From Escherichia coli (GTDB lineage: Bacteria; Pseudomonadota; Gammaproteobacteria; Enterobacterales; Enterobacteriaceae): 64,000 bases of DNA. Each line of letters opens with the position of its first letter. The stretch's first letter is position 1. Under the pieces are notes generated by a model. That model was not told the DNA's origin. It saw only the letters and a list, made by a program, of their open reading frames with translations, and did not search any database. Location of the stretch: assembly GCF_045037415.1 (NCBI RefSeq), contig NZ_CP173438.1. The stretch is one strand, 5' to 3'. The position numbers were made by a program, and so were the translations under genes. Of this stretch, positions 1-948 are shown piece by piece.

Positions 1-1
1 C

Positions 2-898
2 GATGAGTTTGACCAAATTGACTCTGATGAAGAACGACAAAAGTTTGGATCACTCATTAAACAACTTGGTGATCAGGCGTGTGAAGTAAAATTAATTTTT
101 ACGGGGATTGGTGATTCTCTCGTTACTTTAATCGGAGGGCATAAATCAAGTGAGCGACAAATACATCAGGTACATCTCGATAGTTTACCATGGAATGGTC
201 GTTTTCAAATAATTGATAATGCTTTCGATGAGTTTGGCCTGACTGTCGATGATTCTGTCCGCTATAAAATTGCGGGTCTTAGTGACGGGTTCCCGAACTA
301 CATTCATCTTATTTGTGAAAAAATCCTTTTAACATGTCAAAGCTCAATACGTGAATACAGCTCTGTTGATTACAACCTTTTCATTAAAGGGTTAAATGAT
401 GCAATTGATTCAGTCTCGGAAACTTTAAGGCAAAGTTACACGGATGCAACAGAGGGACGTGATGAGTCATATAAGCATATTCTTTGGGCTATGTCCGATA
501 TGGCTGATTTGACCAGACATAAGACTCATATATCAGAATCGTACGTTAAAATTTGCAAATCGCTTGATGTAACACCTTTAGATAAATCCACGTTTGAGCG
601 AAAGTTCAATGCATTGAAGAAACCGACATTTGGATGCATCATCATCCCTGCTTTAGGGAATCGTCCATCTTGGTTTCGATTTAGAGAAAACATGCTTCGT
701 GGTTATATTCGAATGAGAGCGGAGCAGCATGGACTTGAGTTGGACTTCCAAAATTATCGTGTTGCTGGAGAGCATTCTGCTAGGGCTATAGGCAAATACT
801 CTGCTTATAAACCGTTAACTAATGTTGAAGGACGAGTAGCCAAGCTAAGAGGTGATAACGACTGGCTTGACGACATAAAACCAAATCCTATTAAGTGA
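2..898 (+). CDS. Hypothetical protein, 5'-truncated by window edge (C-terminal ~298 aa); AT-rich cargo gene upstream of the lysis cassette
   Basis: Frame 2 is open from position 2 to the TAA at 896..898 (the ORF track only shows the part from the internal Met at 491); GC visibly lower than flanking phage genes; translation begins DEFDQIDSDEE...EVKLIFTGIGDSL. Confidence 0.6.
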   Translation, partial: DEFDQIDSDEERQKFGSLIKQLGDQACEVKLIFTGIGDSLVTLIGGHKSSERQIHQVHLDSLPWNGRFQIIDNAFDEFGLTVDDSVRYKIAGLSDGFPNYIHLICEKILLTCQSSIREYSSVDYNLFIKGLNDAIDSVSETLRQSYTDATEGRDESYKHILWAMSDMADLTRHKTHISESYVKICKSLDVTPLDKSTFERKFNALKKPTFGCIIIPALGNRPSWFRFRENMLRGYIRMRAEQHGLELDFQNYRVAGEHSARAIGKYSAYKPLTNVEGRVAKLRGDNDWLDDIKPNPIK

Positions 899-921
899 CG
901 ATTAATGTGAATAATTAAATC

Positions 922-948
922 AGGCTGCCTTCGGGTGGCCTTTTTATT
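922..948 (+). terminator. Rho-independent terminator-like hairpin after the cargo gene
   Basis: AGGCTGCC-TTCG-GGTGGCCT stem-loop followed by TTTTTATTT. Confidence 0.5.

Follow-up and report, generated by a model that had tools for sequence, protein, structure and literature searches.

The closest described folds to the protein reported here are those of two archaeal AAA+ ATPases of the Pfam family ATPase_2 (PF01637), SSO1545 (2fna) and PABY2304 (2qen), which are themselves of unknown function. Other described proteins with which it can be compared are the initiators Orc1/Cdc6, the antiviral STAND proteins (Avs, bNACHT and NLR-like proteins), the DNA-coating AAA+ ATPases TnsC and MuB, and the ATPases mad8 (MADS), PDC-S01, DS-8, DS-41 and IetA, the nearest by profile among defence proteins. 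The position of its gene also has precedents in lambdoid prophages; stx of 933W-type phages occupies the position between Q and the holin gene. The DNA analysed was a stretch of 64,000 nucleotides (nt) from Escherichia coli (contig NZ_CP173438.1), hereafter called the window, which begins within a gene that is almost certainly an intact AAA+ ATPase gene carried as cargo by a prophage. The product is a P-loop ATPase borne by mobile genetic elements, and its gene is a candidate defence gene with an unusual minimal architecture.

The E. coli ATPase shares about 16% identity with 2fna and 2qen, and its family differs from both in having its own N-terminal helix, a 40-residue variable loop, a tail, and carriage on bacterial mobile elements. 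Compared with Orc1/Cdc6, it scores far under the cut-off of the TIGR02928 model, has no adjoining origin, lies outside the replication module of the prophage, and carries a disordered variable loop as its insert. With the antiviral STAND proteins it has in common a related core of NTPase, helical and winged-helix domains, a G-x-P motif in the helical domain, and locations in prophages and defence islands, but it has neither an N-terminal effector nor a C-terminal sensor and gave no match to the Avs models of PADLOC. The STAND likeness is limited in the searches as well, nSTAND1 being matched at an E-value of only 1.8e-4 and the folds of plant NLRs, Apaf-1 and CED-4 ranking below ORC and the archaeal ATPases. 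Unlike TnsC and MuB, the ATPase has no transposase partner and possesses a winged helix. Similarity to mad8, PDC-S01, DS-8, DS-41 and IetA is weak and confined to the P-loop region, with scores of 15.8-32 bits against cut-offs of 370-790 (examples); the best E-value was obtained with mad8 (7.7e-7, 26.9 bits) and the highest score with DS-8 (32 bits, residues 132-237 of a homologue). These five proteins either belong to multi-gene systems or are about 1,000 amino acids (aa) long, unlike the E. coli ATPase. Among the cargo of the Q-S slot of lambdoid prophages (Stx in 933W-type phages, a DNA methylase in O157 and others), the arrangement of antiterminator and terminator, cargo and holin is alike, whereas the ATPase cargo comes with a promoter-like element of its own and supplies a substitute for the 5′ arm of the shared terminator hairpin.

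Identification of the complete ATPase gene

Frame 2 of the plus strand is open from window base 2 to a stop codon at 896-898, and translation gives 298 codons. The sequence-only reading, an earlier note made from the letters of the window, had described this frame as an AT-rich gene cut at the window edge, and it was right on each point. By direct count, 22 of the first 60 nt are G or C (36.7%), and the fraction of guanine plus cytosine (GC) is 0.36-0.42 across window 1-900, below that of the lysis genes (0.50-0.52) and of the HNH/terminase region (0.52-0.60). The whole window is colinear with NZ_AP022525.1 at 99.99% identity, and the complete open reading frame (ORF) found there has 1,392 nt and encodes 463 aa (WP_021562676.1, labelled 'ATP-binding protein' in RefSeq). 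In L001 numbering the complete ORF spans 14507-15898 and its part upstream of the window 14507-15000; these 494 nt hold the first 165 codons, including the Walker A motif. According to the translation, the complete ORF in identical DNA, and matches to PHROG 6841 and Pfam, window 2..898 (+) contains the C-terminal 298 codons and the stop of a 463-aa stand-alone AAA+ ATPase ORF. Since the ORF is complete in identical DNA, the truncation is an effect of the window edge only.

Over its first 2,300 bases the window matches 55 complete E. coli genomes at 100% identity, and many of these are O25b:H4-ST131. Among 5,426 complete E. coli genomes the ATPase gene was present in 55, as one copy each, always on the chromosome and with at least 99% identity.

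The ratio of nonsynonymous to synonymous substitution rates (dN/dS) was 0.01-0.04 for the conserved domains, as compared with 0.06 for the tail and 0.12 for the loop; these values are rough because dS is saturated between alleles. The protein is under strong purifying selection. The least conserved stretch of the core is formed by residues 101-140, where 33 of 40 sites vary among close alleles. Between alleles with 92-95% protein identity (L001 14507-15898 compared with L016-L022), synonymous sites were near saturation, with a mean dS of about 1, and divergence of this kind at such protein identity indicates old lineages under very strong purifying selection.

A decaying remnant without function, to which the degraded look of the tail-fibre end of the prophage might point, is scarcely credible, because 55 genomes carry the ORF intact and at 99-100% identity, dN/dS in the conserved domains is as low as given above, and all catalytic motifs are kept across about 950 clusters of homologues. 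The selection analysis refutes this explanation, and with it the pseudogene fragment for which the sequence-only reading had left room. The gene is also neither a late-gene regulator nor a DNA methylase, the other identities considered there.

Conserved motifs and predicted structure

The Walker A motif (GDRGVGKTS) is encoded upstream of the window, the Walker B motif (YIVIDEFD) lies at the window start, and KLIFTG corresponds to strand 4 and sensor 1. From the visible residues, the stretch from DEFD to KLIFTG had been taken for the Walker B and sensor region of a P-loop NTPase, and this proved correct: Walker A is present upstream, D166 and E167 are invariant, G200 is conserved, and a strand is predicted at residues 195-201. 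In an alignment of 106 representatives with a median identity of 32%, residues G56, G59, G61, K62, S64, D166, E167 and G200 were 98-100% conserved, and conservation of 85-100% was found for Walker A and B, G200, H212/S214/R217, G261-x-P263, H267, Y311, W327, Y346 and R398-G-Y-x-R402.

Pfam gave matches to AAA_16 (2e-9), AAA_22 (2e-6), ATPase_2 and nSTAND1 (1.8e-4, residues 29-332), and the full length is matched by PHROG 6841, a family without known function (E 6e-103; residues 13-452 align to profile positions 13-463 of 470). By profile search the family comprises 956 clusters (50% identity) at E <= 1e-30 and 2,709 at E <= 1e-10. Complete members are nearly all 410-470 aa long and match positions 1 to about 420, and no fusions were found among the best 150 representatives. 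No NCBIfam 20.0 model reached its cut-off, the best being the orc1/cdc6 model TIGR02928 with 35.6 bits against 181.3, over the N-terminal 87 residues only. Neither a megablast search of GenBank phages nor a sequence search of the PDB gave a match, and a search of the viral folds in BFVD returned only generic clamp-loader and AAA+ matches. The databases know the family only as 'ATP-binding protein' or PHROG 6841, and no named defence family tested fits.

A model obtained with AlphaFold2 (AF2) from 56 homologues, with a predicted local distance difference test (pLDDT) score of 84 and a predicted template modelling score of 0.78, consists of a nucleotide-binding domain (about residues 30-225), a lid (229-335), a winged helix (336-407) and a disordered tail. 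As modelled, the protein is a stand-alone AAA+ ATPase of the ORC/Cdc6-STAND-like group; searches with hidden Markov models and structures, run on the full protein as the sequence-only reading had proposed, gave this fold and the PHROG 6841 family. The fold search ranked the uncharacterised archaeal ATPases 2fna (19.2) and 2qen (19.1) highest, followed by Orc/Cdc6 (about 16), TnsC/MuB (about 15), the N-terminus of BrxC (13.5), and CED-4 and plant NLRs (about 13), and Foldseek agreed with this ranking.

Window 2..190 (+) encodes the second half of the nucleotide-binding domain (residues 166-228), as defined by invariant columns and the AF2 model, with D166/E167 of Walker B at nt 2-7 and T199 of KLIFTG at nt 101-103. 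The conserved H212/S214/R217 motif lies in the same segment; judged from its position only, R217 (nt 155-157) is a probable arginine finger, and this candidate suggests AAA+-type rather than STAND-type assembly. The predicted helical lid (residues 229-335) occupies 191..511 (+), has pLDDT values mostly >90 and contains the conserved G261-x-P263 (nt 287-295), H267, Y311 and W327. The winged helix (residues 336-407; 512..727 (+)), delimited by AF2, fold alignments and conservation, includes the conserved Y346 and R398-G-Y-x-R402; in the model it is built of helices 339-352 and 360-369, a beta-hairpin (379-392) and helix 395-407, and it aligns to Orc1/Cdc6 and to 2fna and 2qen. The C-terminal tail (residues 408-463; 728..895 (+)) is poorly conserved, mostly predicted to be disordered and specific to the enterobacterial branch, with pLDDT <50 at 421-437 and 454-463 and with 66-85% gaps in the alignment of representatives. 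In the AF2 model a disordered loop (106-133) separates the two helices that precede the Walker B strand, and the variable segment of about 40 residues sits where initiator-type AAA+ proteins have a DNA-contacting insert. The same model contains no enzymatic effector domain and no repeat sensor, the chain ending with the winged helix and a 55-residue tail.

Location of the gene in the prophage

The host element is a temperate E. coli prophage with a P27-type terminase, an HK97-type capsid and a contractile tail. In the RefSeq annotation, immunity and replication genes are followed by DUF968, DUF1133, the ATPase, holin, lysozyme, Rz, DUF2441, HNH and terminase genes. The upstream neighbour, DUF1133, belongs to PHROG 753 and is a Q-like antiterminator (E 6e-67). 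On its 3′ side, a hairpin (L001 14417-14436) is followed by a T-run (element at L001 14417-14445, given as 572-584 nt upstream of window base 1), and this hairpin resembles the tR′-type terminator that belongs to a lambdoid late promoter unit. Near it, at L001 14315-14342, a weak promoter-like site was noticed (TTGGCA-16-TAAATT). Directly 3′ of the cargo, at 995..2274 (+), lies the lysis cassette, which according to the ORF list and the RefSeq annotation of identical DNA consists of a lambda-family holin (995-1330), a GH24 lysozyme (1334-1810) and Rz (1807-2274).

DUF1133 and its hairpin are common to related prophages at 80-98% identity, and this homology ends at L001 14439-14445; from there up to the holin, the related prophages sharing DUF1133 have 400-500 nt without an annotated gene, or a 127-aa ORF. 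The holin region is common to 1,400 other genomes, whose megablast matches start at window 934/935, inside the terminator hairpin, and in prophages sharing it the slot is filled by a DNA methyltransferase gene or by other genes. Because homology stops after the terminator of the antiterminator gene and resumes at the pre-holin terminator, the ATPase gene is exchangeable cargo, and with presence/absence polymorphism at a fixed backbone site and a deviant composition the unit is moron-type cargo. The sequence-only reading had placed the gene in the late-region cargo slot before the holin; the Q-like gene now found upstream of the complete ORF, the breaks of homology on both sides and the varied slot contents of relatives agree with this placement.

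The cargo unit is closed by an intrinsic-terminator-like hairpin and T-tract at 922..950 (+; stem 922-941), recognised by scan, megablast and alignment. The hairpin begins 24 nt past the stop codon and has 8 pairs, 5 of them G-C, and a loop of 4, after which TTTTATTT follows. Three terminator-like sites were scored in 3.2 kb, the number expected from shuffles, so the hairpin rests on its position and its conserved 3′ arm and not on the count; on these two grounds the gene's own hairpin terminator, noted earlier from the letters, is upheld. The junction between the cargo and the holin backbone (934/935) falls within the hairpin, other prophages starting at query 235/236 in the megablast search. 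Prophages with other cargo (DNA methylase) have a different 5′ arm, which still pairs with the shared 3′ arm GTGGCC and its T-tract. As far as these alignments indicate, the terminator hairpin seems to be the exchange point of the slot.

The insertion boundaries are thus those of a terminator-to-terminator swap and not element ends, which bears on whether the ATPase serves a small inserted element, either as its replication initiator or helicase loader (Orc1/Cdc6-like) or as its target-selection ATPase in transposition (TnsC/MuB/IstB-like). This explanation is very improbable. The TIGR02928 score is far short of the cut-off of 181, and a search around the gene (L001 14300-16050) found no iteron-like or origin-like repeats; the prophage has its replication genes 7 kb away on the upstream side. 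Neither a transposase nor an integrase gene adjoins the ATPase gene in the E. coli locus, and neither is a conserved neighbour in the 44 groups of homologues. The initiator and transposon-ATPase readings are largely refuted by the score, the repeat search, the neighbours and the boundaries taken together. RNA families were likewise not found around the gene.

Upstream of the gene, TGTTATAGT lies 28 nt before the ATG, and a Shine-Dalgarno sequence (AGGAG) lies 7 nt before it. The extended -10-like sequence TGnTATAGT is kept in five alleles (92-100% protein identity), and a sixth allele (84% identity), the rest of whose upstream DNA is unalignable, has TGATAGAAT at the same place. By its sequence and conservation, the element has the appearance of an extended -10 promoter that accompanies the gene. 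Since it has no good -35 sequence and was not called in a generic promoter scan, transcription of the gene in the lysogen from a promoter of its own can only be inferred.

Genomic contexts of homologues

In 91 loci representing 44 ATPase groups (80% identity), no conserved partner gene was found, and only phage backbone families recur. The commonest neighbour families were DUF968, lysozyme, holin, Rha/ANT, Rz and Q-like, each in at most 7 of the 44 groups. DUF968 was considered as a partner and rejected as phage backbone (7 of 44 groups). As no neighbour family is conserved, the gene would work alone, or with partners supplied by the host or the invader.

Among phages, gp30 of mycobacteriophage Kevin1 is a homologue with 25% identity and 86% coverage, encoded in the central variable region of this cluster N phage on the repressor/integrase strand, adjoining a HicB-like gene; it is termed only an orphan AAA-ATPase in the announcement of the genome (PMC6544188). 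The homologue gp34 of Gordonia phage Cashline lies between the tail genes and the integrase gene. An Edwardsiella prophage homologue adjoins cI and HipA_2/DUF3037, and that of a Vibrio prophage occupies the same late slot as in E. coli, after DUF968 and before the lysis genes.

The late slot gives weight to a role within lytic growth: the ATPase would be an accessory or counter-defence factor, transcribed after induction chiefly from the Q-dependent late promoter and of benefit to the phage itself. It might act by neutralising a host defence, by remodelling the DNA metabolism of the host or by warding off satellites during the burst. Its gene lies downstream of the Q-like gene and the tR′-like hairpin and directly before the holin, and seven ATPase groups adjoin DUF968 in the same late region of different prophages. 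We nevertheless consider such a role unlikely, because homologues are found also in lysogeny-side slots (the repressor/integrase strand of Kevin1; beside cI in Edwardsiella) and, beside defence genes, on non-phage chromosomal islands and plasmids, and because the promoter-like element travels with the gene.

Outside phages, a homologue on a Pseudomonas island adjoins an OLD-TOPRIM and UvrD (Gabija-like) pair, and one on a Pectobacterium integrative conjugative element is accompanied by PDDEXK_4 and HxsD/radical-SAM genes. Others are located on integrase islands, or adjoin an AAA_15/DUF3696 pair, AbiJ/Abi_C, an OLD-family gene or Mrr_cat, and one has a TIR gene at 10 kb. Homologues were also found on 78 plasmids, 63 of them from Yersinia. 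The homologue on pMT1 of Y. pestis CO92 (WP_002211751.1; 44% identity over the full length; record 66212-67603, L104 7001-8392) has parAB immediately upstream and a RelE/Phd pair, a DNA methylase gene and ArdA nearby, and it is a conserved gene of pMT1/pFra plasmids.

A further possible identity is that of a DNA-binding factor with a housekeeping or regulatory task in mobile elements. Like plasmid accessory ATPases or STAND regulators of the MalT type, the ATPase would then be an ATP-dependent switch acting in maintenance, partition, copy control or transcription, whether of element or host genes (lysogenic conversion). We give this little credence, since no conserved partner, operator-like repeat or iteron adjoins the gene, replication and regulation of the prophage are provided for by modules of its own at other sites, and the gene is optional within one prophage lineage; a housekeeping role would also leave the recurrent OLD, Abi, Mrr and AAA_15 neighbours unexplained.

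Probable function

On the whole we lean towards defence against phages or other mobile elements as the most likely role of the ATPase. The gene has a mobile, optional, single-gene distribution, occupies prophage cargo slots and keeps company with defence genes, and for these reasons defence is rated likeliest. In seven of about ten informative non-phage contexts, which are a small non-random sample, an OLD/Gabija-like, AAA_15, AbiJ, Mrr, PDDEXK_4 or TIR gene lies within 10 kb, to which HipA_2/DUF3037 of the Edwardsiella prophage may be added. The ATPase would shield the lysogen from other phages or mobile elements, and would do the same for the phage while it grows lytically itself.

Only an ATP switch and modules of the DNA-binding type are recognisable in the protein, and the most economical mechanism is therefore one in which it assembles, dependent on ATP, on DNA or on one of the invader's replication factors. 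By analogy with the fold relatives Orc1/Cdc6, TnsC and MuB, the ATP-bound protein may oligomerise on DNA by means of its variable loop and winged helix, and the ATPase so assembled would block the replication of the invader, or another of its DNA transactions, directly and not through toxin-mediated killing of the cell. This specific mechanism of DNA assembly is put forward tentatively and is rather doubtful. A stronger form of the proposal, in which an effector-less initiator-like AAA+ ATPase is by itself the immunity protein, the loop setting its specificity and ATP driving its assembly on the DNA or replication machinery of the invader, with no nuclease, toxin or signalling partner, has in our estimate a still smaller chance of being correct.

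Several results weigh against a role in defence. Defence-system models, of the kind that the sequence-only reading had proposed to run on the locus, were run on the protein (PADLOC-DB 2.0 and NCBIfam 20.0) and assigned no defence family: PADLOC-DB gave only P-loop-level matches to mad8, PDC-S01 and IetA, with no full-length match to a named system, and PADLOC and NCBIfam searches with eight diverse homologues again gave P-loop-level matches only. The DefensePredictor supplements do not list WP_021562676, and their AAA-type system DS-41 matches at the P-loop only. In the literature, with Brenes and Laub 2025 outside the scope of the search, no experiment or publication on the ATPase family was found. 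The context survey has no statistical background in addition to its small size, and some homologues stand in contexts without a defence gene, beside RtcB or, on pMT1, downstream of parAB. Positive selection on the variable loop, which was considered, was rejected, a dN/dS of 0.12 representing relaxed constraint. The protein has no recognisable effector, so that the execution of immunity is a guess, and the place of the gene in the late operon downstream of the antiterminator would make service in the lytic cycle equally possible.

Other features of the window

Between Rz and the HNH/terminase region, a 202-aa stand-alone ORF at window 2380-2988 (+), with a GC fraction of 0.36-0.41, matches DUF2441 and PHROG 9842 (function unknown). 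It is probably another cargo gene; no PADLOC match was obtained for it. In an O157 prophage with the same lysis cassette, the DUF2441 slot holds iss (bor-like) on the opposite strand. Within Rz, a 68-aa ORF lies out of frame at window 2027-2233 (+), and its N-terminus has a lipoprotein signal with Cys. This ORF, which is absent from the RefSeq annotation, is by its sequence the predicted Rz1-type outer-membrane spanin.

The right end of the prophage (window about 20780-25300) looks degraded: stfP is partial, and a tail-fibre-domain gene is surrounded by unannotated gaps. Then follow zinT and a copy of IS1397, and the rest of the window is ordinary chromosome (hprRS, dcm-vsr and fli operons).

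Biological meaning

The locus documents the slot between Q and the holin gene of E. coli prophages as an exchange site, in which cargo appears to be swapped by recombination within a shared terminator hairpin. If the ATPase does not serve in defence, its gene is an ordinary uncharacterised prophage accessory gene. If it does, the gene would constitute a compact system of one gene (1.5 kb including its signals), to which the usual scheme of a sensor plus a toxic effector could not apply, and immunity by an effector-less AAA+ protein, if true, would be a mode of defence unrepresented among the described systems and carried on ST131 prophages and on pMT1 of Y. pestis. A defence role would also provide a function for a family of about 950 clusters, including the orphan 'AAA-ATPase' of the cluster N mycobacteriophages and the conserved gene of pMT1, as well as for the long-unexplained archaeal fold of 2fna and 2qen.

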